A DNA stretch of 52,346 bases from Bacilli bacterium (GTDB lineage Bacteria; Bacillota_I; Bacilli_A; RFN20; CAG-826): contig JAILGI010000044.1 of assembly GCA_024696885.1 (NCBI GenBank), positions 1-52,346 on the forward strand, read 5' to 3'. Each line of letters begins with the position of its first letter. The stretch's first letter is position 1. The notes under the pieces are model-generated. The model saw only the letters and a list, made by a program, of their open reading frames with translations. It was not told where the DNA came from and did not search any database. The position numbers were made by a program, and so were the translations under genes. Shown here piece by piece: positions 5,073 through 46,970 of this stretch.

Positions 5073-5085
5073 GCCTCTGCTTTTT
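5054..5085. terminator. bidirectional rho-independent terminator between convergent genes
   Basis: AGCAGAGG (5054..5061) pairs with CCTCTGCT (5074..5081) across a 12-nt loop, followed by TTTTT. It lies between the 4455..5072 gene and yggS. Confidence 0.7.
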
Positions 5086-5716
5086 ATTTGAATAAAATAC
5101 GACCTAAGCGAATATGAGTGGCGTGATGTTTTAAAGCGATTAAATAATCGTCACTCATACCCATAGATAAATAAGGAAGAGAAATGTGAAGTTTTTCTTC
5201 GATTTCGTTTCGTAATAAATGTAGTTTTTCAAATTGTTCGTCTAAAGAATCGCTAGCGGCGTTTTTAACCGCCATCATCATTAGACCAACTAGGTGAATC
5301 TTCTCGTATTTTAAACACTCTTTAACAGAGTTAAGAACGCATTCCATTTTGACACCGTTCTTACTTTCTTCATTATTAACCGACACTTCGATAAAACAAT
5401 CGAGAGGAGTTTCTCTTAAAACGTTGATTTTCTCCGCTAGGAGGAGCGAATCTAAGGAATGTAAGCAATCGATCTTGTTGATGACTTTATGCGCCTTGTT
5501 GCGCTGTAAATGGCCAATAAAATGCCAAGATAATTTTAAAGACTGCAAAGAATCATATTTTTCTAAGAAAGCATCCACTCTATTTTCACCAAAATTAGTT
5601 ATACCAGCGTCATACAAAGTACGAATATCATTGGCGTCAGCGTACTTACTCGCAGCCACAACGGTAACATTATTAGGGATAGTGGATAAGAAACTTTTGA
5701 TATCTTCACGAACCAT
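5084..5716 (-). CDS. yggS: YggS/YlmE-family PLP homeostasis protein
   Basis: VTVVAASKY (PLP lysine), FGENRV and WHFIGHLQRNK motifs; 210 aa. Confidence 0.85.
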   Translation of the reverse strand: MVREDIKSFLSTIPNNVTVVAASKYADANDIRTLYDAGITNFGENRVDAFLEKYDSLQSLKLSWHFIGHLQRNKAHKVINKIDCLHSLDSLLLAEKINVLRETPLDCFIEVSVNNEESKNGVKMECVLNSVKECLKYEKIHLVGLMMMAVKNAASDSLDEQFEKLHLLRNEIEEKLHISLPYLSMGMSDDYLIALKHHATHIRLGRILFK

Positions 5717-5895
5717 AAAACTATCTTATAACAGAATAAAAAGATTAACAAAAATAATGATTATTTATCATTTGGTAAAAAGCATGAGATAGTGTATCCT
5801 ATATTTAGTTATTTGAACGGTCTTGTGACATTAAAAAGTAATCATTTTACTAAATTACATTATCAAAGATAAAGAAATGTTAACAAAGTTAAAAA

Positions 5896-5923
5896 CTACT
5901 AAAAAACGACTAAATAACTACTA
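5896..5923 (-). repeat. 11-bp-phased TAGTAG array, locus A (3 units)
   Basis: + strand cores CTACTA 5896, CGACTA 5907, CTACTA 5918, spaced exactly 11 and 11 bp. The last core runs into the AGGAGG RBS of the 5933 gene. Confidence 0.8.
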
Positions 5924-5932
5924 GGAGGATAT

Positions 5933-6841
5933 ATGGACTCTCTTAAGACTTTAATGGATAAAAAACAATACGCTTTGGTTCTTAAACTGACAGAAAATAG
6001 CGTAGATCCCACTTATCTTTTTTATCGTATAAGCGCGTTGCTCGCCACGGGCAAAGCGGAAGAATCTTTAGCCTGCATCAAGGCGAATAGAGAACTCTTA
6101 GAATCCAACTTAAGCATCCTTATCCGTGTCCATATGGAAATCCTTTGCCTATTAGGAAGATTTGATGAGGCCTATGAAGAATTAAAGCATTATGAAAATC
6201 TTCCTTATGTCTCTCAACAAGTAGAGGAATTATTACGCTCCATGCCTCAATATATACGTTCTGAGGAAAAGAAGTCTTTTGGTTCAAAAGAGATGAATGA
6301 TGATCAAGTTATTAAACTCCTTCGCTCCGATGATATGAACGATGTTCTTATCGCTCTTGACATAGTCAAAAGTCGCAAAATTGAACCATTCTTAAACGAT
6401 TTAAGAGCTTTGATGGTTAATCACCCACTTCAATCTATTCGTTCCTTCACTTTATTTGTCCTTGTACAAAATGAATTTAAGCAAGAAGTCGCGTTCAAGC
6501 ACATTGATGAAATCATTCACGTTGTGCCCGCTAATTTAGAACCTCCATTTTCCACAAATCAGTTTAATAATGTGGTGAGAAAGATATCTCATGAATATAA
6601 AAATCCATCCTTAGAGGAAACCGCGATTCAAATCCTTTCTACCTACATCATGTATATTTATCCTGATGTTATCGCTTATAGCGATGAAGTTATCATTGAA
6701 GCTTTATTCCAAATTGGTAACACCTATTTACAGACAAGTGATTCTAAAGATTTATCATCTCGCTGTGTAGAAAAGAAAATCAGCCTTGTTGAAGTCAAAG
6801 AATTAATCGATAAAATCAATAAAGCATTAAACGATTTCTAA
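5933..6841 (+). CDS. hypothetical all-helical protein (TPR-like N-terminus)
   Basis: 302-aa ORF with a strong RBS (AGGAGG, 5923..5928). Helical-repeat character, with no catalytic motif recognised. Confidence 0.6.
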   Translation: MDSLKTLMDKKQYALVLKLTENSVDPTYLFYRISALLATGKAEESLACIKANRELLESNLSILIRVHMEILCLLGRFDEAYEELKHYENLPYVSQQVEELLRSMPQYIRSEEKKSFGSKEMNDDQVIKLLRSDDMNDVLIALDIVKSRKIEPFLNDLRALMVNHPLQSIRSFTLFVLVQNEFKQEVAFKHIDEIIHVVPANLEPPFSTNQFNNVVRKISHEYKNPSLEETAIQILSTYIMYIYPDVIAYSDEVIIEALFQIGNTYLQTSDSKDLSSRCVEKKISLVEVKELIDKINKALNDF

Positions 6842-6948: not shown

Positions 6949-8223
6949 ATGGAAAGAAAATTAACAAAGCTCGAACATTCACATGTTGAAGTGCTTGTCA
7001 CCGTGGATGCGAAGACTTGGAAAGATGCGCAAAAGAAAGCTTTTGATAAAGAAGCAGCGAACGTTGAAATCCCAGGTTTCCGTAAAGGTAAAGCACCAGA
7101 AAACTTAGTGAAATCAAAAGTTAATCAAATGAAAGTAATGGACGAAGCTATCAACGCTTTATTACCAGTTGCTTATCGTGAGATTATAGAACAAGATGGT
7201 GTTAAACCATACGCTCAACCAAAGGTTGATATTACCAAATTAAGCGATACTGAATTAGAAATTAAGTTCACAATTGTCACCGCTCCAGAAGTGAAGTTAG
7301 GTGCTTATAAAGGCTTAAAGATTGGTCATAACGAAGTCAAGGTTGATCCTGAAGAAGTCGAAACCGCAATTAAGAAAGTGTTAAGTGAAAACGCTTCCTT
7401 AGTGGTTAAAGAAGATGTCGCTAAAGAAGGCGACACAGTTATCTTAGACTTTGCTGGTTCAATCGATGGCAAAGCATTCGAAGGTGGTTCTGCTCAAAAC
7501 TATGAATTGGAACTCGGATCCCATGCTTTCATCCCTGGCTTTGAAGAACAATTAGTGGGTCATAAAGCTGGTGAACACGTTGATGTCAACGTCAAATTCC
7601 CAGAAAACTATGTCGAAGAATTAAAAGGCAAAGATGCTGTCTTCGCATGTGACATTCACGAAGTGAAAGAAAAGAAACTTCCTGAATTAAACGATGAATT
7701 CGTCAAAGAATTAAAACTCAAAGACGTCGAAACAGTTGCTCAATTAAGAGCCAACAAAGAAGCGGAAATCAAAGCGAATAAAGAAAACGCGGAAAAGAGA
7801 GACTACATGGATAAATTACTCTCTGAAATCGCGAAGAACGCACAAGTGGAAATCCCAGATGAAATCCTCGATAACCAAGTCGCAAGTCGTAAAGAAGACT
7901 TTGAAAAGAGAATTTCTCAATCCGGATTCACCCTTGAAAAATATCTCCAAGTTTTAGGTCAAAAAGAAGAAGAATTCTTAGCCCAAATTAGAAAAGACGC
8001 TCTCAGAGATGTTACTCACTATGTCATCATGGAAGAAATCGGCAAAGCCGAAGGTATTGAAATCACCGAAGCAGATTTAGAATTTGAATTTGCAAGAATG
8101 GCAGAACAATACAACATGAAAATCGAAGACATTAAGAAAGCATTAAGCAGCCAACTCGGAGACATGAAGAACAGTTTATTCATGACTAGAGTGGAACAAT
8201 TCCTAACTGAAAATAACGATTAA
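6949..8223 (+). CDS. tig: trigger factor
   Basis: MERKLTKLEHSHVEVLVTVD..., GFRKGKAP ribosome-binding signature, FKBP-type middle domain. Start set at ATG 6949 behind GGAGG rather than ORF-track 6907. Confidence 0.9.
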   Translation: MERKLTKLEHSHVEVLVTVDAKTWKDAQKKAFDKEAANVEIPGFRKGKAPENLVKSKVNQMKVMDEAINALLPVAYREIIEQDGVKPYAQPKVDITKLSDTELEIKFTIVTAPEVKLGAYKGLKIGHNEVKVDPEEVETAIKKVLSENASLVVKEDVAKEGDTVILDFAGSIDGKAFEGGSAQNYELELGSHAFIPGFEEQLVGHKAGEHVDVNVKFPENYVEELKGKDAVFACDIHEVKEKKLPELNDEFVKELKLKDVETVAQLRANKEAEIKANKENAEKRDYMDKLLSEIAKNAQVEIPDEILDNQVASRKEDFEKRISQSGFTLEKYLQVLGQKEEEFLAQIRKDALRDVTHYVIMEEIGKAEGIEITEADLEFEFARMAEQYNMKIEDIKKALSSQLGDMKNSLFMTRVEQFLTENND

Positions 8224-8245: not shown

Positions 8246-10570
8246 ATGCCAAATAAACCTCAAAAACTCACACTCCCTATCATCATTACTCGTGGCACCA
8301 TCGTCTATCCTGGTACCCAAGAAGTGATTGATGCGGGAAGAGAAATCTCCATCAACGCAGTTAACGCTGGCAAGCGCGAAGCGGATTCCTTAGTGTTTAT
8401 GACTTCTCAATTTAATGAGGATGTCGATAACCCCACCGAAAACGATGTATATCTCGTTGGCACCCTTTGCCACATTATTTCCGTATCCCCTCGCCAAGGC
8501 TTTTATAAAGTCCGTATCGAAGGCGCGGAACGTGTCAGCTTAACTTCCATCAAATATGATGAAGATAACAAATACTATGTTGCCGAAGGCAAAATACTAC
8601 CATTACCCCTTCTTGAAGATGAGGTTAATGATGAATTATTAAGAGATTTGAAACAAACAATTGACCAATATCCGGACATTGTGGCGAAGATGCCTAAATC
8701 AATCTCTAACACCATTTCCCGCAGCAAAAACGTGGATGTTGTTTGCTATGCTTTAGCGAGCATTCTCGATGCTCCAGTGAAGACCAAACAAGCGATTTTA
8801 GAGTTAGATGATTTTAATCAACTCGTGGAAAACGCGAAAACTTTACTCAAAGGCGAACAACAAAAAACAGAACTTGAAAGAGGCATTCAAGATTCTGTCA
8901 GAGAAGCCGCGGAGAAGTCTCAAAAAGAATATTTCTTAAGAGAAAAATTAAAAGCGATTAAGAAAGAACTCGGTGAAGATAGTGGTTCTAATTCTCCAGA
9001 TGCCATCTTGGAAAAATTAGAAAATAACCCATATCCAGAACACATCAAGAAAAAGGTCAAATCCGAATTAAAGAAATTCGATATGATGCCTGGTGGTTCT
9101 TTAGAAGCCGCTTTAATTCAATCTTATTTAGACGTAGTCATGAATGTCCCCTGGTGGCAAAAAACCGAAGACAACAATGACTTACATAACGTCGAAAAGA
9201 TACTCGATGAAGATCATTACGGATTAGAAGATCCCAAAAAGAGAATTATCGAATATCTTGCGGTTAAGAAATTAACCGGCAATTTAAAGAGCCCTATTCT
9301 CTGTTTCTATGGCCCACCTGGAACTGGTAAAACCAGTTTAGGTAAATCTATCGCTCGCGCTTTAGGAAGAAAATTCTTCAAAGCTAGCTTAGGTGGCATC
9401 TCTGATGAAGCGGAAATCCGCGGTCATAGAAGAACCTACGTTGGTTCCTTACCAGGCCGTATTATTCAAGGCATGCGTAAAGCGGGCGTTACTAACCCCG
9501 TCTTCCTCCTTGATGAAGTCGATAAACTCGCTAGTTCTTATAAAGGCGACCCCGCAAGCGCTCTTTTAGAGGTGTTGGATCCCGAACAAAATAATCAATT
9601 CAACGATAACTACTTAGAAGAACCATATGATTTAAGCGATGTCTTATTCATTTGCACCGCTAACTATTTAGATCAAATTCCTGGTCCTTTAAGAGATCGT
9701 TTAGAATTGATCCAACTTTCCAGTTATACCGAAATTGAAAAGATTCACATCGCTAAAGAACACTTAGTGAAAAAGCAAATCGAAATTAACGGTTTAAAAG
9801 AAGAAGATGTCTCCTTTACCGATGGAGCTATTACTTTCATCATCCGTGCTTATACACGCGAAGCAGGCGTGCGTAACTTAGAAAGAAAAATTGCGGCATG
9901 CTTAAGAAAAGTCGCCGTTGCGATCGTCAAAGATCCTAAACTTGGTCACACTGAAATCGATGAAGAAAAGGTCAGAGAATACCTCGGAACACCAATTTTT
10001 GAAGACACCAAGAAGGAAAAAGAACCACAAGTGGGTGTCGTTACTGGCCTCGCTTACACCGAATACGGTGGTGACATCTTGCCAATTGAAGTTAATTACT
10101 TCAAAGGAAAAGGTGGACTTGTTTTAACCGGTAATTTAGGTGATGTCATGAAAGAAAGTGCCTCCATTGCTTTAGACTATGTGAAGAGCAACGCTGAACA
10201 CTTCAATATCGATGCCTCTTTATTCGGCGAAAATGACATTCATATTCACGTCCCAGAAGGCGCAGTGCCAAAAGATGGTCCAAGCGCTGGTGTCGCAATT
10301 ACAACCGCCATCATTTCTTGTTTAAGCAAGACTCCTGTTGACTCTAACGTCGCTATGACAGGTGAAGTTACACTTCGCGGTAACGCTCTTGCTATCGGTG
10401 GATTAAGAGAAAAATCCCTCGCCGCTTTAAGAAGTGGTATTACAACCATTATCGTTCCTAAAGACAACAAGAAAGATGTCGATGAACTTCCTAAGGAAGT
10501 TAAAGATAATTTAAACATCATCTACATGTCCAGCGTTGATGACGCTGTCAAGGTGGCGTTACTTAAATAA
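8246..10570 (+). CDS. lon: ATP-dependent Lon protease (LonA)
   Basis: Walker A GPPGTGKTS, catalytic PKDGPSAGV, 774 aa, strong RBS AAGGAGG. Confidence 0.95.
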   Translation: MPNKPQKLTLPIIITRGTIVYPGTQEVIDAGREISINAVNAGKREADSLVFMTSQFNEDVDNPTENDVYLVGTLCHIISVSPRQGFYKVRIEGAERVSLTSIKYDEDNKYYVAEGKILPLPLLEDEVNDELLRDLKQTIDQYPDIVAKMPKSISNTISRSKNVDVVCYALASILDAPVKTKQAILELDDFNQLVENAKTLLKGEQQKTELERGIQDSVREAAEKSQKEYFLREKLKAIKKELGEDSGSNSPDAILEKLENNPYPEHIKKKVKSELKKFDMMPGGSLEAALIQSYLDVVMNVPWWQKTEDNNDLHNVEKILDEDHYGLEDPKKRIIEYLAVKKLTGNLKSPILCFYGPPGTGKTSLGKSIARALGRKFFKASLGGISDEAEIRGHRRTYVGSLPGRIIQGMRKAGVTNPVFLLDEVDKLASSYKGDPASALLEVLDPEQNNQFNDNYLEEPYDLSDVLFICTANYLDQIPGPLRDRLELIQLSSYTEIEKIHIAKEHLVKKQIEINGLKEEDVSFTDGAITFIIRAYTREAGVRNLERKIAACLRKVAVAIVKDPKLGHTEIDEEKVREYLGTPIFEDTKKEKEPQVGVVTGLAYTEYGGDILPIEVNYFKGKGGLVLTGNLGDVMKESASIALDYVKSNAEHFNIDASLFGENDIHIHVPEGAVPKDGPSAGVAITTAIISCLSKTPVDSNVAMTGEVTLRGNALAIGGLREKSLAALRSGITTIIVPKDNKKDVDELPKEVKDNLNIIYMSSVDDAVKVALLK

Positions 10571-11171: not shown

Positions 11172-11368
11172 ATTGATGAATTCCAGTGAAGAAGAGGAGT
11201 AGCTTAACACTCTTGGAATAGAGATTCGGGGATGGTGGAAGCCTGAAACAAGAATTAAGTGAAGGTCGCTTTGGAGGAATAGTTGCCTAGCGAAAATAGG
11301 TTAATAAGTGCGTCGCAAGACGAACTAAGGTGGTACCACGCGTAAGCGTCCTTAGAGGGCGTTTTTTA
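11172..11368 (+). promoter_or_regulatory. T-box leader (tRNA-sensing riboswitch) of valS
   Basis: TGATGA K-turn region (about 11173), AGAGA (11220..11224), distal-loop GGTGGAA (11234..11240) and the T-box sequence AAGGTGGTACCACGCG (11327..11342). These are followed by a short hairpin plus TTTTTT (11347..11367). A possible GUC (Val) specifier lies at 11265..11267, but I am not certain of it. Confidence 0.8.
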
Positions 11369-14048: not shown

Positions 14049-14231
14049 ATGAAATACACTTTATTAACTGAACAAGAAATGGAAGAAACAAAAGGTGGAG
14101 GAGCAGTTACGCTTGTCACCGTTATGACAGTATTGTGCGCGTCTATAATCGCGGTCGTGGTATATCGTTTATTTATGTCTTCTAAAGGAAGCGCCACCGT
14201 TCCTGGCGGTTGGAAATTCACTTGGAACTAA
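14049..14231 (+). CDS. 60-aa peptide with a double-glycine-type leader and a hydrophobic core (bacteriocin-like or small membrane peptide)
   Basis: AGGAGG (14035..14040) lies 8 nt before ATG 14049. Sequence: MKYTLLTEQEMEETKGG / GAVTLVTVMTVLCASIIAVVVYRLFMSSKGSATVPGGWKFTWN. Its stop codon TAA directly abuts the TTG start of radC. Confidence 0.6.
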   Translation: MKYTLLTEQEMEETKGGGAVTLVTVMTVLCASIIAVVVYRLFMSSKGSATVPGGWKFTWN

Positions 14232-14989: not shown

Positions 14990-15085
14990 CGTTGTCGCCT
15001 CACTAGCTACAACCGCATAGAAGAGGTTATAGAAATCCTATTAAGGATACCTTAATAGCGAGTCATTAGTGAATCTTTCAAAGGA
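14990..15085 (+). ncRNA. structured 5' leader of rplU (L21-leader-like)
   Basis: A perfect 9-bp hairpin, CTATTAAGG-ATA-CCTTAATAG (15038..15058), sits inside a ~100-nt untranslated leader. This is the location of the Firmicutes L21 leader; its identity was not verified. Confidence 0.45.
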
Positions 15086-33261: not shown

Positions 33262-33281
33262 TATAAATCTTAAGATTTATA
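33262..33281. repeat. perfect 20-bp AT-rich palindrome
   Basis: TATAAATCTT/AAGATTTATA lies immediately after the aspS stop and 3 nt before repeat locus B. Confidence 0.85.
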
Positions 33282-33284
33282 TAA

Positions 33285-33312
33285 ATACTAATAAACTACT
33301 AAAAATCTACTA
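33285..33312 (-). repeat. 11-bp-phased TAGTAG array, locus B (3 units)
   Basis: + strand cores ATACTA 33285, CTACTA 33296, CTACTA 33307, spaced exactly 11 bp. The array ends 5 nt before the tkt RBS GGAG. Confidence 0.85.
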
Positions 33313-33328
33313 ATCAAGGAGAAACAAA

Positions 33329-37279: not shown

Positions 37280-37470
37280 TGGATGAAAAAATGGATTTTC
37301 AAACTGCCAGTCGTAGATTAGAAGAGATTGTAGAGCTCATCTCCAATCAATCTTTATCCCTTCAAGAAAGCCTTAAATTATATGAAGAAGGCCAAGAAAT
37401 TATCAAAATGTTAACAAAAGAGTTAAATGACGCTGAAGAAAAAGTGGAAAAGATTGTCGACATCAAATAA
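37276..37470 (+). CDS. xseB: exodeoxyribonuclease VII small subunit
   Basis: FQTASRRLEEIVELI...LSLQESLKLYEEG; overlaps the xseA stop. Confidence 0.9.
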   Translation: MMDEKMDFQTASRRLEEIVELISNQSLSLQESLKLYEEGQEIIKMLTKELNDAEEKVEKIVDIK

Positions 37471-37483
37471 TTTTGAAATTTGT

Positions 37484-37511
37484 TAGTAATTAATTAGTAG
37501 ATTTTTAGTAT
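37484..37511 (+). repeat. 11-bp-phased TAGTAG array, locus C (3 units)
   Basis: Cores TAGTAA 37484, TAGTAG 37495, TAGTAT 37506. The third core ends 1 nt before the A of the dxs ATG (37512). Confidence 0.85.
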
Positions 37512-39350: not shown

Positions 39351-39395
39351 GTTTTGGTTAACATAATATTTGAATACATTATATAATAATGGCGT

Positions 39396-40589
39396 ATGAG
39401 TAAAGTGATAGTTCACATCGACTTAAACGCCTTTTTTGTTCGAGCGGAGGAAATAAAAGAACCCTCTTTAGAGAATAAACCTGTTGCTATTGGTAAAGAA
39501 GGAAGAGGGGGAATTGTTTCGACTTGCTCATATGAAGCGAGGAAATTTGGTGTCCATTCTGGTATGCCAATGTTTCAAGCTAAACAACTCTGTCCAAATC
39601 TTATCGTCCTTCCTGGCGATTATCGCTTTTATCGAGCACTCTCACGCACGTTTTTCGCATTCATGAGGAATTATACCCCACTAGTGGAAATCGCCTCTGT
39701 AGACGAGTGTTATGCGGATTTTACCGAGGTAATCAAAGGAAAGAAGGATGTGGAATCCTATTTTAGGAGGTTGCAATCCGATCTATTTGCTAAAACAGGT
39801 TTAAAGTGTTCCATCGGTGTGGGACCTAATAAGTTTTTAGCAAAAATGGGTAGTGATTATAAAAAACCTCTGGGTTTAACCATCATCCGCAAAAAAGATG
39901 TATCGACAATTTTATATCCATTATCTTTAGATAAACTATATGGTGTTGGAAAGCGTACCCTTCCTAAACTACAAGCGATGGGCATTTCTACGATTGGAGA
40001 ACTCGCGAAAAGATTATTTGAAGACGATAGTGAAACGCTTAAAGTTTTAGGCAAGTTTTCTATCACTTTAACAGAATGGCTTAAAGGCAATGGTGACGAT
40101 GAAATAATTGTTGAAGAATTCGATCCCAAATCTATCGGACATTCCACAACGCTGAAAAACGACACGAATGATTTTGAAGATATAAAACCTATCTATCGTG
40201 AACTATGTAACGAAATTGCTTACCAAGCAAAAAAAGAAAAGAAGATGGGCCACACCGTCCAAATAGTCATTAAGGAATCAGATGGTAATTTTACTACACA
40301 CAATAAATCAGTGACTTTAGATAGACCGATTAATGACGCAAATTTGATATACAAATATGCGACAAACTTATACGAAAAATACTTTCTTGGCATCACAGTG
40401 AGACTTGTTGGTGTTACTTTGCAAAACCTTATATCCCAAAAAGAAGCGGTTATCCAAATGAGTTTGTTTAATTACGAAGAACACGAATCTGAGAACAAGA
40501 CAAAACTGCTTATTAATGAAATTAACCGTGGTTTAGATAAACCTCTTTTGATGCGCGCTTCCGATGTGAAAAAGGAGAAAAAGAAATGA
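39396..40589 (+). CDS. dinB: DNA polymerase IV
   Basis: HIDLNAFF, SVDECY, and the C-terminal clamp-binding-type motif QMSLF (40455..40469). Confidence 0.9.
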   Translation: MSKVIVHIDLNAFFVRAEEIKEPSLENKPVAIGKEGRGGIVSTCSYEARKFGVHSGMPMFQAKQLCPNLIVLPGDYRFYRALSRTFFAFMRNYTPLVEIASVDECYADFTEVIKGKKDVESYFRRLQSDLFAKTGLKCSIGVGPNKFLAKMGSDYKKPLGLTIIRKKDVSTILYPLSLDKLYGVGKRTLPKLQAMGISTIGELAKRLFEDDSETLKVLGKFSITLTEWLKGNGDDEIIVEEFDPKSIGHSTTLKNDTNDFEDIKPIYRELCNEIAYQAKKEKKMGHTVQIVIKESDGNFTTHNKSVTLDRPINDANLIYKYATNLYEKYFLGITVRLVGVTLQNLISQKEAVIQMSLFNYEEHESENKTKLLINEINRGLDKPLLMRASDVKKEKKK

Positions 40590-42867: not shown

Positions 42868-43518
42868 ATGAGTACAAGAGAAAATAGTGGAATCGACTAT
42901 CAAAACTTCAAGAAATATAACAGGATGAGAAGTTCCGACGAAGAAGAAAGAAAAAGACAATTAGCCTTGGAAAGAAGGAAAGGCCAATTCGATATGATAT
43001 CTTGGCTTTTAAGACAAAATGACTATGTAAGATATGCGGAAACACATAAATTGAGATATAAAGCCTTAGCAGGTGAAATATATGAGATTGATTTCGGCAT
43101 CAATGTTAACGCTGAATTGTCTTATCGGCATTACGGACTTGTCCTAGCAGACTCAGAAGAAAGCAATCCATTAGTCATGGTCTGTCCGTTGAAGACCAAT
43201 TTTAAAGGTGCCCACCCTGCGAGCGACGTAAATCTTGGTTATATTGAGGAATTGAACAGTGATCATGAATCTTTGGCAATCATTAATCAAATTAGAATGG
43301 TGGACAAAATTAGAATTTACCGTAGAACCACAATTGGAAAATATGTCAAACCAAAATACACCTTGTCAGATGTTGAGCAAGATGATTTTGAGGATGAATA
43401 TGAAGGTGAGACTTATACGCCTTATAGGTTAGAAGCTAAGAAATTCGAAATAGTGAAAACCGCCATCATGAACTACATTAAGTTTGGCAAAATAGATCCG
43501 GAGGAGAAAAATTACTAG
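42868..43518 (+). CDS. long solitary MazF/PemK-fold protein (putative endoribonuclease toxin-like) with N- and C-terminal extensions
   Basis: Core aa 69-151: GEIYEIDFG..AELSYRHYGLVLA...LVMVCPLKT...SLAIINQIRMVDKIRI. This parallels MazF/EndoA signatures GDVY.ADL..GSE..G.RPVLV, AAIT and EQIRTIDKQRL. RBS AGGAG. Confidence 0.6.
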   Translation: MSTRENSGIDYQNFKKYNRMRSSDEEERKRQLALERRKGQFDMISWLLRQNDYVRYAETHKLRYKALAGEIYEIDFGINVNAELSYRHYGLVLADSEESNPLVMVCPLKTNFKGAHPASDVNLGYIEELNSDHESLAIINQIRMVDKIRIYRRTTIGKYVKPKYTLSDVEQDDFEDEYEGETYTPYRLEAKKFEIVKTAIMNYIKFGKIDPEEKNY

Positions 43519-43532
43519 TAGATTTCTAGTAG
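43516..43532 (+). repeat. 11-bp-phased TAGTAG array, locus D (2 units)
   Basis: TAGTAGATTTC TAGTAGATTTT. The first TAG is the stop codon of the MazF-like gene. Confidence 0.8.
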
Positions 43533-43550: not shown

Positions 43551-43591
43551 ATGTGGAAAAGTCAACTAATTCACGGTTGATAAATCCACAT
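43551..43591 (+). terminator. extended hairpin, possible terminator of the MazF-like gene
   Basis: ATGTGGA..TCAAC-TAATTCACG-GTTGA..TCCACAT, followed by ATTTTAGGTTTT. Confidence 0.35.
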
Positions 43592-43647: not shown

Positions 43648-43675
43648 GGTTAACATAACGGAAATTATACGAAGT
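43648..43675 (-). other. dif: candidate dif site (XerC/XerD chromosome dimer resolution site)
   Basis: The minus strand reads ACTTCGTATAA-TTTCCG-TTATGTTAACC. B. subtilis dif (from memory) is ACTTCCTAGAA-TATATA-TTATGTAAACT. Arms match 9/11 and 9/11; the central region differs. The site lies at the + to - gene-orientation switch. Confidence 0.6.
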
Positions 43676-46287: not shown

Positions 46288-46837
46288 AAAGAGTCCTCCA
46301 ATCTATTAATTTGCCTTTTTTGGCGTAATGTTTTCGCATTGGTCGATCAATAAGACGATTAAAATGTGTTGTCCATTGGTCTTCTTTAACTATTTTATCA
46401 GTTAAAACCATCCTAATGTTAGCCTTATTTGCCATTCCAGCATCAGTAACTAATTGATCACCCACCATCATTGTCTCGTCAACGTTAATACTCTTTTGAG
46501 CGATTAAGCGCTTAATCTTTCTCGCAAATGGCTTTCTAGCACTATACATGCATTCCAAGCCTAAATTCTTAGCATAGGATGTAACGCGTTTACCTTTATT
46601 ATTAGAAATAATAATGGGGGTAATACCAGCTTCAATAACTTTAGCGATGTATTCCTTTGTTCTTTCCGTAGGAACATAAAGGCGATAGCTATCAAGTGTA
46701 TTGTCTAAATCAACAAATAAGGTTTTGACATTGTGTTGAACGAAGAAATCAACATCAATTTCGAATAGTGATTTAGCATGAACAAATACTTTCCTGGATA
46801 AACACATGTAATTATTATAGCGAAATCGTTCTTTCAT
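46274..46837 (-). CDS. yqeG: YqeG-family HAD-IIIA phosphatase
   Basis: LFVDLDNTL and MMVGDQLVTD motifs. The true start may be the internal ATG at 46807 (MCLSRK...), which sits 6 nt after a TATAAT box. Confidence 0.8.
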   Translation of the reverse strand: MKERFRYNNYMCLSRKVFVHAKSLFEIDVDFFVQHNVKTLFVDLDNTLDSYRLYVPTERTKEYIAKVIEAGITPIIISNNKGKRVTSYAKNLGLECMYSARKPFARKIKRLIAQKSINVDETMMVGDQLVTDAGMANKANIRMVLTDKIVKEDQWTTHFNRLIDRPMRKHYAKKGKLIDWRTLYGKS

Positions 46838-46865: not shown

Positions 46866-46899
46866 AAATGAAAAAGAAAAACCGATTTTATTCGGTTTT
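46866..46899 (-). terminator. rho-independent terminator after parC
   Basis: The minus strand reads AAAACCGA-ATAAAA-TCGGTTTT, then TCTTTTTC. Confidence 0.7.
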
Positions 46900-46913
46900 C
46901 TATATAATTATAT

Positions 46914-46941
46914 CTACTAATTATCTACTAGTTTATTACTA
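46914..46941 (-). repeat. 11-bp-phased TAGTAG array, locus E (3 units)
   Basis: + strand cores CTACTA 46914, CTACTA 46925, TTACTA 46936, spaced exactly 11 bp, between the parC stop and its terminator. Confidence 0.85.
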
Positions 46942-46952
46942 GAATTTTAATT

Positions 46953-46970
46953 TAACATATTAATATGTTA
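46953..46970. repeat. perfect 18-bp AT-rich palindrome
   Basis: TAACATATT/AATATGTTA abuts the parC stop codon (46971..46973). Confidence 0.85.

Follow-up and report, generated by a model that had tools for sequence, protein, structure and literature searches.

Response regulators of the OmpR/PhoB family, including ArcA, PhoP/WalR, CtrA and RR_1586, recognize boxes that are built as direct repeats, with a core of 5–7 base pairs (bp), an AT-rich spacer and 11 bp from centre to centre. An ArcA box holds between two and four direct repeats whose centres are 11 or 22 bp apart (PMC3798270), sites with three repeats are documented (PMC3798270, PMC4173790), and the box of C. difficile RR_1586 is a twofold repeat of DRTTAAGNWWW (PMC6222199). 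The same format is found in a 52,346-nucleotide stretch of DNA from an uncultured gut or rumen bacterium of the Bacilli (GenBank assembly GCA_024696885.1, contig JAILGI010000044.1, complete stretch hereafter termed the window), in which five loci, A to E, carry arrays of two or three TAGTAG-like units. The arrays are direct repeats within the range of OmpR/PhoB-type sites (a 5–7 bp core at 10–11 bp centre to centre). Their conserved core is TTAGTA. Unlike the boxes of this family, many arrays are found after stop codons or between convergent genes instead of at promoters, and at three loci the array keeps a set distance from an adjoining palindrome. We know of no response-regulator box that matches the TTAGTA core.

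The only protein found with a matching sequence specificity is Rok of B. subtilis, whose winged helix reads the minor groove, prefers TACTA and AACTA and then TpA steps of the ATATA type, and disfavours rigid A-tracts (PMC6212790). The array cores read TACTA or AACTA on one strand, the palindromes beside them are rich in TpA steps (ATATA-type), and their spacers are A/T-tracts. This match is one of sequence only, a resemblance and not membership. In addition, TACTA is the rarest AT-rich pentamer of the window (rank 1 in rarity among 96 such pentamers, compared to rank 2 in the clade and rank 5 in unrelated low-GC controls). However, no Rok homologue is present in the DNA fetched here, and TACTA is depleted in control genomes as well. 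To our knowledge, Rok occurs in some Bacillus species only, and no 11-bp phased arrays have been described for it.

Outside the response regulators, three 11-bp repeats next to a hairpin are also found at the bind locus of pMV158 RepB, where three tandem 11-bp direct repeats are each bound on the same DNA face and a hairpin-forming inverted repeat lies near (PMC9943647). In contrast to that locus, the arrays are chromosomal, dispersed and orthologously conserved, their units are not identical, and their hairpins are 4–12 nucleotides (nt) away, compared to 84 bp at the pMV158 origin. No initiator (Rep) gene or origin was found beside the arrays, whose neighbours are housekeeping genes (aspS, tkt, xseB, dxs, parC, yqeG, plsY, lepA); the window lies at the replication terminus. 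A preliminary description of the window had compared the arrays to winged-helix boxes, iterons and nucleoid-organizing sites. The first comparison agrees with the OmpR/PhoB-family format and the last may still apply, while iterons are improbable given that neither an initiator gene nor an origin lies near the arrays.

The arrays are far more frequent than chance predicts. TAGTAG-N5-TAGTAG with at most one mismatch occurs nine times in the window, compared to 0.12 ± 0.33 times in 100 dinucleotide-preserving shuffles, none of which reaches nine, and all nine matches fall inside the five intergenic loci. The hexamer itself is rare, with 5 and 6 copies per strand compared to about 19 expected per strand from base composition, and 9 of the 11 TAGTAG/CTACTA copies in the window lie in arrays; the remaining two (16133 and 24755) are coding. 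The five loci, with their coordinates and sequences, the nine perfect hexamers and the excess over chance had all been reported in the preliminary description and were found to be correct.

The spacing of the units is equally strict in related genomes. Same-strand TAGTA pairs were counted in clade DNA that totals about 576 kb and comes from uncultured Bacilli of rumen and gut, which carry the labels Erysipelotrichaceae or Coprobacillus. A spacing of 11 bp was found 78 times, 12 bp twice and 10 bp never; a spacing of 22 bp was found 27 times and 33 bp never, and clade arrays therefore have two or three exact units, never more. The same census found no phased TAGTA pairs in the control genomes. 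Moreover, 57 of the 58 exact TAGTA-N6-TAGTA pairs in the clade DNA of the first scan, which is about 88% coding, are intergenic. The intergenic restriction and exact 11-bp phase claimed for the window thus extend to the clade. Equal frequency in coding DNA and absence from orthologous spacers had been named beforehand as results that would speak against the array family, and in the relatives neither is the case.

In a logo of the clade units the conserved unit reads wwTTAGTAnwT, with an AT-rich spacer. Its core, TTAGTA (reverse complement TACTAA), hardly varies; a T stands at position +7 in 78% of units, and a G at position +5, the sixth base of the hexamer, in just 42%. This corrects the consensus first proposed, TAGTAG(A/T)TTTT, whose sixth base is not conserved. 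Degenerate units that stay in phase usually read TAGTT, the complement of AACTA, which accounts for 11 of them; CAGTA, TAGTG and TAGTC also occur. None of them swaps TAG for TAA or TGA.

Conservation was followed in ±10 kb around tkt from 80 genomes and in loci anchored on yqeG, a sample that reaches about 72 kb per genome around the terminus. The nearest relatives are uncultured rumen, horse and gut metagenome-assembled genomes (MAGs) labelled Erysipelotrichaceae, Bacilli or Coprobacillus, with Tkt identities of at most 82%; a look-up of the window's Tkt protein found no identical entry. Arrays B (5′ of tkt), C (between xseB and dxs) and D (at the end of a PemK-like gene, beside a dif-like site) recur clade-wide in the same orientation, and are also found in genomes of 52–53% GC (L021, L029) and in a Coprobacillus MAG. 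Array B is upstream of tkt in about 18 relatives, array D is kept in more than 15, and array E is kept in L201–L203, L319 and L320. Array C retains its orientation in relatives, and in L010–L012 it is still present after xseB, followed by a terminator, in a place where dxs is absent. The yqeG-anchored loci revealed a new locus, F, directly after plsY and just past the right end of the window, and C, D, E and F are retained in more distant relatives with 59–60% YqeG identity. A second new locus, G, lies directly after lepA in L314, the closest syntenic contig, which also keeps array A; in L314/L315 this array reads AACTA/TACTA/TACTA and is followed by GGAGG.

Overall, the cores persist at 32–53% GC and 55–82% protein identity while spacers and flanks diverge, and purifying selection acts on the cores alone. 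Outside the clade, about 50 tkt loci from other phyla have no arrays, save one match with one mismatch in a cyanobacterial locus (L077). When homologues of the DUF3737 gene were used as anchors, L314 was the sole syntenic contig; P0247 and P0257, from unrelated genomes of 24–28% GC, have no arrays and serve as negative controls. Because relatives keep the arrays at the same places, the arrays are a real and functional signal. They represent an orphan cis-element, recognized from sequence alone, on which purifying selection is very strong throughout a clade of uncultured rumen and gut bacteria of family or order rank, for which no regulator has been characterized.

These conservation data largely refute the idea that the arrays are neutral products of AT-rich slippage or relics of a mobile element, be it of the REP or MITE kind or a rolling-circle origin in which a hairpin accompanies three 11-bp repeats. 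A hairpin with three 11-bp direct repeats does recall the pMV158 double-strand origin (PMC9943647), and 11-bp TAGTAG satellites exist elsewhere in metagenomes. However, position and orientation are kept at orthologous sites even between deeply diverged genomes in which the spacers vary freely, the units of one array are not identical and never exceed three in the clade, and no Rep or transposase gene is near. This origin is thus extremely improbable.

Look-alike arrays with AT-rich spacers, followed by a terminator, were found in three viral contigs of IMG/VR (L245, L303, L304). In L245, a phage-like contig of 65 kb, four TAGTA units with T-rich spacers lie at 9557–9860, past the tail genes, between the stop codon of a 74-amino-acid open reading frame (ORF) and an intrinsic terminator. 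A metagenome-wide scan for three-unit arrays gave no new clade contexts; its matches were mostly eukaryotic and other satellites and a separate family, TTAGTAGGTKAT. This family consists of 3–6 tandem 11-bp units in intergenic DNA of Bacteroidota-like rumen contigs (L088, L098, L128, L135, L162, L171, L173, L183 and L189; GC about 0.5), with promoters of the TAnnTTTG type near. It has the period and the TAGTAG core in common with the clade arrays, but occurs in another lineage, and its spacer contains G and C. In metatranscriptomes, related sequence was found in one dataset only, as short contigs of about 88% identity that cover coding parts only.

Table 1. Coordinates of the arrays in the window and of the features that accompany them; units are given on the strand indicated.
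Feature	Position	Strand	Sequence or size	Setting
Palindrome at A	5880..5892		TTAAC-aaa-GTTAA (TTAACaaaGTTAA)	L314/L315 (closest relative): same palindrome ahead of array
Array A	5896..5923	-	TAGTAG, TAGTCG, TAGTAG; core starts 5896/5907/5918 (+ strand CTACTA, CGACTA, CTACTA)	
Palindrome at B	33262..33281		perfect, 20 bp, arms 10 bp	immediately 3′ of aspS stop
Array B	33285..33312	-	TAGTAG, TAGTAG, TAGTAT; core starts 33285/33296/33307	between palindrome and tkt Shine-Dalgarno sequence/ATG (33329)
Array C	37484..37511	+	TAGTAA, TAGTAG, TAGTAT; core starts 37484/37495/37506	
Array D	43516..43532	+	two units, TAGTAG, TAGTAG; core starts 43516/43527	116 bp upstream of dif
DnaA-box-like 9-mer	43552..43560	-	TTTTCCACA	accompanies array D; relatives at same place: GGTGGATAA, TGTGGATAA or TGTGGAAAAGTC
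dif-like site	43648..43675		GGTTAACATAA-CGGAAA-TTATACGAAGT, 28-mer	at gene-strand switch and GC-skew maximum; context, outside array family
Intrinsic terminator at E	46877..46900	-		13 nt downstream of array E, ahead of yqeG promoter
Array E	46914..46941	-	TAGTAA, TAGTAG, TAGTAG; core starts 46914/46925/46936	sense strand of parC and yqeG
Palindrome at E	46953..46970		perfect, 18 bp, arms 9 bp	immediately 3′ of parC stop

The arrays occur in two classes of context (Table 1). In the first class (A, B and E), a palindrome with arms of 5–10 bp stands beside the array. Arrays A and B are antisense and touch the Shine-Dalgarno (SD) sequence of the next gene, which for array A is a 302-amino-acid ORF at 5933 that has its spacer in common with a divergent YggS-like gene (5084–5716, minus strand). 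At locus B, a palindrome with arms of 6–10 bp is found in 19 of 20 orthologous loci, and its stem varies symmetrically (TATAAAC, TATATAC, TTATAAC, TACATACT, CTATCCTT). The C of the first unit lies 14–16.5 nt from the palindrome dyad in 16 of 18 genomes, and the distance to the ATG is 16–25 nt. At locus E, all four genomes measured have exactly 22 nt between the dyad and the central G of the first unit, although the intervening sequence differs. Palindrome stems thus vary among genomes yet remain self-complementary. The palindromes at B and E had been noticed before as following directly on the upstream stop codons; both are perfect, and locus A has a palindrome as well.

In the second class (C, D, F and G), the array has the same orientation as the gene upstream of it, on the sense strand, and begins 0–23 nt past the stop codon of that gene. 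Array C begins 13 nt past the xseB stop codon (37468–37470), and its last unit touches the ATG of dxs (37512), which has no SD sequence. In array D, the first TAG doubles as the stop codon of the PemK-like gene (42868–43518). The stop-hugging placement is kept at D and F despite spacers of 250–390 bp. An intrinsic terminator follows 3–25 nt after the array at E, at F and at C of L010–L012. The order of array and then hairpin was found at E in L201–L203 and L320, at F in L201–L203, L319 and L320, and in the viral contigs, while no hairpin is evident after E of L319 in the context shown. Array E has a terminator like that of class 2 arrays, but it begins about 30 nt past the parC stop codon, beyond its palindrome. 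Arrays A, B, C, E and G are upstream of a gene start, and D and F lie between convergent genes. The tight placement of sense arrays after stop codons and before terminators, together with the fixed palindrome-array register, is new with respect to the preliminary description.

Placement directly after stop codons invites the explanation that the arrays are fail-safe stop cassettes, in which three units spaced by 11 nt provide a TAG in each reading frame and keep ribosomes out of the terminator hairpin or the next gene. The arithmetic is true of every three-unit array, and arrays C to G are on the sense strand right after a stop codon, often right before a terminator. However, A and B are antisense, there are only two units in D, in G and in some F arrays, and few genes have an array. 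Moreover, TTAGTA is conserved well past the TAG, and TAA and TGA never substitute for it even though TAA is the usual stop codon (33 of 41 genes). Double TAG stops in all three frames, to which attention had been drawn earlier, are for these reasons, and given a G at +5 in only 42% of units, not upheld as a selected feature, and a stop cassette is very unlikely.

The reading that we favour, tentatively, is that the arrays form a helically phased DNA-binding array for a putative winged-helix-type protein, which would serve as an operator, roadblock or boundary where transcription units meet. We infer that the reader of the arrays is a protein that acts on DNA. The arrays would be lineage-specific cis-elements that are read as double-stranded DNA, in which two or three TTAGTA (or TACTAA) boxes lie one helical turn (11 bp) apart on the same helix face. 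These boxes would be bound side by side by an oligomerizing, sequence-specific protein of the winged-helix kind, for which an OmpR/PhoB/ArcA-like response regulator and a Rok-like nucleoid-associated protein are candidates. The sites are found where one transcription unit borders on another: they follow closely on stop codons, precede terminators, or separate a small palindrome from the ribosome-binding site that comes next. From this placement it follows that the bound protein would act on RNA polymerase crossing between units, as an operator or roadblock, or would mark and organize the unit boundaries.

Several observations are consistent with a DNA-binding reader. Cooperative binding to one face of B-DNA produces just such a rigid one-turn spacing, with zero exceptions at 10 bp. 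The unit logo, with its 5–6 near-invariant bases, AT-rich spacer and T at +7, would fit a recognition helix combined with a contact by a wing or in the minor groove. The core pentamers are the two that the winged helix of Rok binds best (PMC6212790), selection is confined to the cores, and neither an Rfam match nor co-variation of complementary arrays speaks for an RNA. The arrays face either way with respect to the local gene, A and B in one direction and C to G in the other, and each direction is conserved; repressor sites of the OmpR/PhoB family can likewise stand in either orientation relative to the gene. In addition, the register between palindrome dyad and array is fixed to ±1 bp at B while the distance to the start codon drifts.

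Other observations weigh against such a reader. The genes of the window include no candidate binding protein, and a tblastn search that used the C-terminal domain of Rok as query (its sequence checked against PDB 5ZUZ) found no significant Rok-like sequence in any of the fetched DNA (about 72 kb per genome). The sole response regulator seen is atypical, lies near the syntenic region of L314 and is absent from the window. TACTA depletion is not specific to the clade. Moreover, D and F are between convergent genes, where a promoter is not expected, and the position of sense arrays 0–23 nt from the stop codon and 3–25 nt before a terminator, even in spacers of 250–390 bp, suggests that position inside the transcript matters. 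The symmetric change of the palindromes between close relatives also looks more like that of a hairpin than that of a conserved operator.

The response regulator mentioned above belongs to a gene pair at 8173–9913 of L314, to the left of the homologue of the window's DUF3737 gene, which encodes a histidine kinase and a 187-amino-acid protein whose receiver domain is weak and whose OmpR-like C-terminus is degenerate. No other two-component pair was seen near an array, and this one has no evident tie to the arrays. A scan for sigma-70 promoters found none that clearly overlaps an array, bar a weak ATAACA-16-TAAAAT match at E. The arrays themselves were considered as sigma-70 promoters, since TTAGTA-N17-TAGTAT mimics a −35/−10 pair, and this was rejected; the predicted starts fall in coding DNA or right before terminators, and no consistent promoter emerges.

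The main rival to a DNA-binding reader, itself rather doubtful, is an element that functions in the transcript. UUAGUA repeats would lie in the 3′ untranslated region between the stop codon and the terminator hairpin, and UACUAA repeats between a hairpin and the SD sequence in 5′ leaders, as sites for an RNA-binding protein or RNase that controls 3′-end stability, terminator read-through or translation of the next cistron. At C, D, F and G, sense arrays do follow the stop codon by 0–23 nt, whereas at E the palindrome lies in between, and a terminator within 3–25 nt is found at E, at F, at C of L010–L012 and in L245, L303 and L304, even in the long spacers. This order of stop codon, array and terminator is too regular to ignore. 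In addition, the core is quasi-palindromic (TA-G/C-TA) and gives UAnUA in RNA from either orientation, the palindromes change symmetrically in a compensatory manner as stems do, and the genes after C and G have no SD sequence.

However, an exact 11-nt period is structurally meaningless in single-stranded RNA, and repeat-binding RNA proteins use other periods. TRAP and HutP recognize RNA targets made of (G/U)AG or UAG triplets that are 2–4 nt apart. The arrays resemble these targets in having repeated UAG-containing motifs beside terminators and start codons, but the TRAP/HutP targets have 2–4 nt spacers and one orientation, on the transcribed strand, while the arrays have an 11-nt period with a spacer of 5–6 nt past a core of 5–6 nt, and A and B are antisense. 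The flanking RNA also differs by orientation (UUAGUAG compared to CUACUAA), the leaders fold no further than the terminator, and most terminators of the window have no array. A search with the covariance models of Rfam 15 gave no match at the arrays, only a T-box and an L21 leader elsewhere in the window. Finally, complementary 5′ and 3′ arrays do not co-vary within genomes; the duplex energy is −17.2 kcal/mol for arrays of the same genome, compared to −16.4 ± 4.4 kcal/mol across genomes. Pairing of a small RNA with an mRNA, through 5′ CUACUA and 3′ UAGUAG arrays, was rejected on the same grounds; B and C have 18 complementary nucleotides, but pairs from one genome are no better than pairs from different genomes.

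The phase of the arrays is thus DNA-like and their placement transcript-like, and no current model covers both. An unlikely further possibility is that a lineage of uncultured Erysipelotrichales-like Bacilli, together with its phages, punctuates its transcription units by a system not described so far, of which the arrays are the cis-sites. Bound to phased TACTA boxes that directly follow stop codons, precede terminators or lie beside dif, a Rok-like or otherwise novel protein would then stop RNA polymerase in a polar manner or bound its domains, and might do the same to the replisome or condensin; the arrays would be a bacterial insulator and not a classical operator. Their systematic position behind stop codons, ahead of terminators and close to dif hints at such insulation of transcription units, which is poorly understood in bacteria. 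If the favoured DNA-binding reader were a response regulator, its regulon would be given by the arrays and would include tkt, dxs and the yqeG-nadD operon, among others. If it were a Rok-like nucleoid protein, that mode of reading DNA would reach far beyond Bacillus and would have natural high-affinity phased sites.

The window encodes housekeeping genes. Those on the plus strand include relA, hisS, aspS, tkt, nusB, xseA/B, dxs, dinB, xerD, deoB and the PemK-like gene, and those on the minus strand include nadD/yqeK, yhbY, yqeH, yqeG, parC and parE. At about 43.6 kb both gene strand and GC skew switch, and the dif-like 28-mer located there is kept in relatives, including L010 and L201–L203. 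These features indicate that the window spans the replication terminus. The xerD gene (40586) and parC/parE are close to the dif-like site. A possible XerD half-site at 39356 (GGTTAACATAAT) was discarded because it is more simply explained as the −35 element of the dinB promoter.

The arrays could in principle be elements of the terminus or of replication, such as polar fork-arrest (Ter-like), FtsK-guiding (KOPS-like) or terminus-organizing (matS-like) sites, or could be related to DnaA, with TAG as a DnaA-trio. Like Ter/RTP, KOPS and matS sites, they cluster around dif, with one array directly beside it; five of the seven known loci are within about 10 kb of dif, out of about 72 kb sampled per genome, which is a mild excess, and D adjoins DnaA-box-like motifs and dif in all relatives. 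Unlike those sites, they have no polarity with respect to dif or replication. Their orientation does not switch at dif (A minus, B minus, C plus, D plus, then dif, E minus, F plus), an order that suits neither a fork trap nor KOPS polarity, and arrays are also found 38 kb (A) and about 53 kb (G) from dif and in viral contigs. The DnaA-trio arrangement requires at least three contiguous TAG-type trinucleotides by DnaA boxes, while the arrays have at most two contiguous TAGs and DnaA-box-like neighbours at D only, with no DnaA boxes near A, B, C, E or F. A terminus or replication element is thus highly improbable. The preliminary description had placed four of the five loci near dif; all four are indeed within 10.4 kb, but for the reasons above the link of the arrays to dif or the terminus is weak.

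In relatives that keep array D, it is always followed by DnaA-box-like GTGGATAA or TGTGGAAAA motifs. DnaA-box-like 9-mers beside dif are also found in L007, L008, L010, L201, L202, L319 and L320, including tandem TGTGGAAAATGTGGAAAAGTC, and the terminus is an odd place for a cluster of DnaA boxes. The array units themselves were examined as weak DnaA boxes (TTATCTACT, 7 of 9 positions) and rejected; the match is found in a minority of spacers only, and the units are out of phase with the true boxes at D. The PemK/MazF-like protein encoded at 42868–43518 has a 68-amino-acid N-terminal extension and no obvious antitoxin gene, and it lies beside dif in all relatives.

Other features of gene expression were also observed in the window. 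Leaderless-type starts are found at dinB (39358–39396), where TTAACA-18-TATAAT is followed by the ATG 8 nt after the −10 element, and at yqeG (46807–46837), where TATAAT is 6 nt from the ATG; the real start of yqeG is probably 46807, with a product of 177 amino acids. Several genes, including dxs, tig and recJ, have no SD sequence. A ribosomal protein L21 leader is located 5′ of rplU (15001–15076), and a T-box leader 5′ of valS (11177–11356) scores 88 bits, slightly below the gathering score. Finally, the spacer between valS and radC contains an unannotated 60-amino-acid ORF (14049–14231) with a good SD sequence, which encodes a leader of the double-glycine type (MKYTLLTEQEMEETKGG...) and then a hydrophobic peptide, and which looks like the precursor of a bacteriocin or peptide pheromone.

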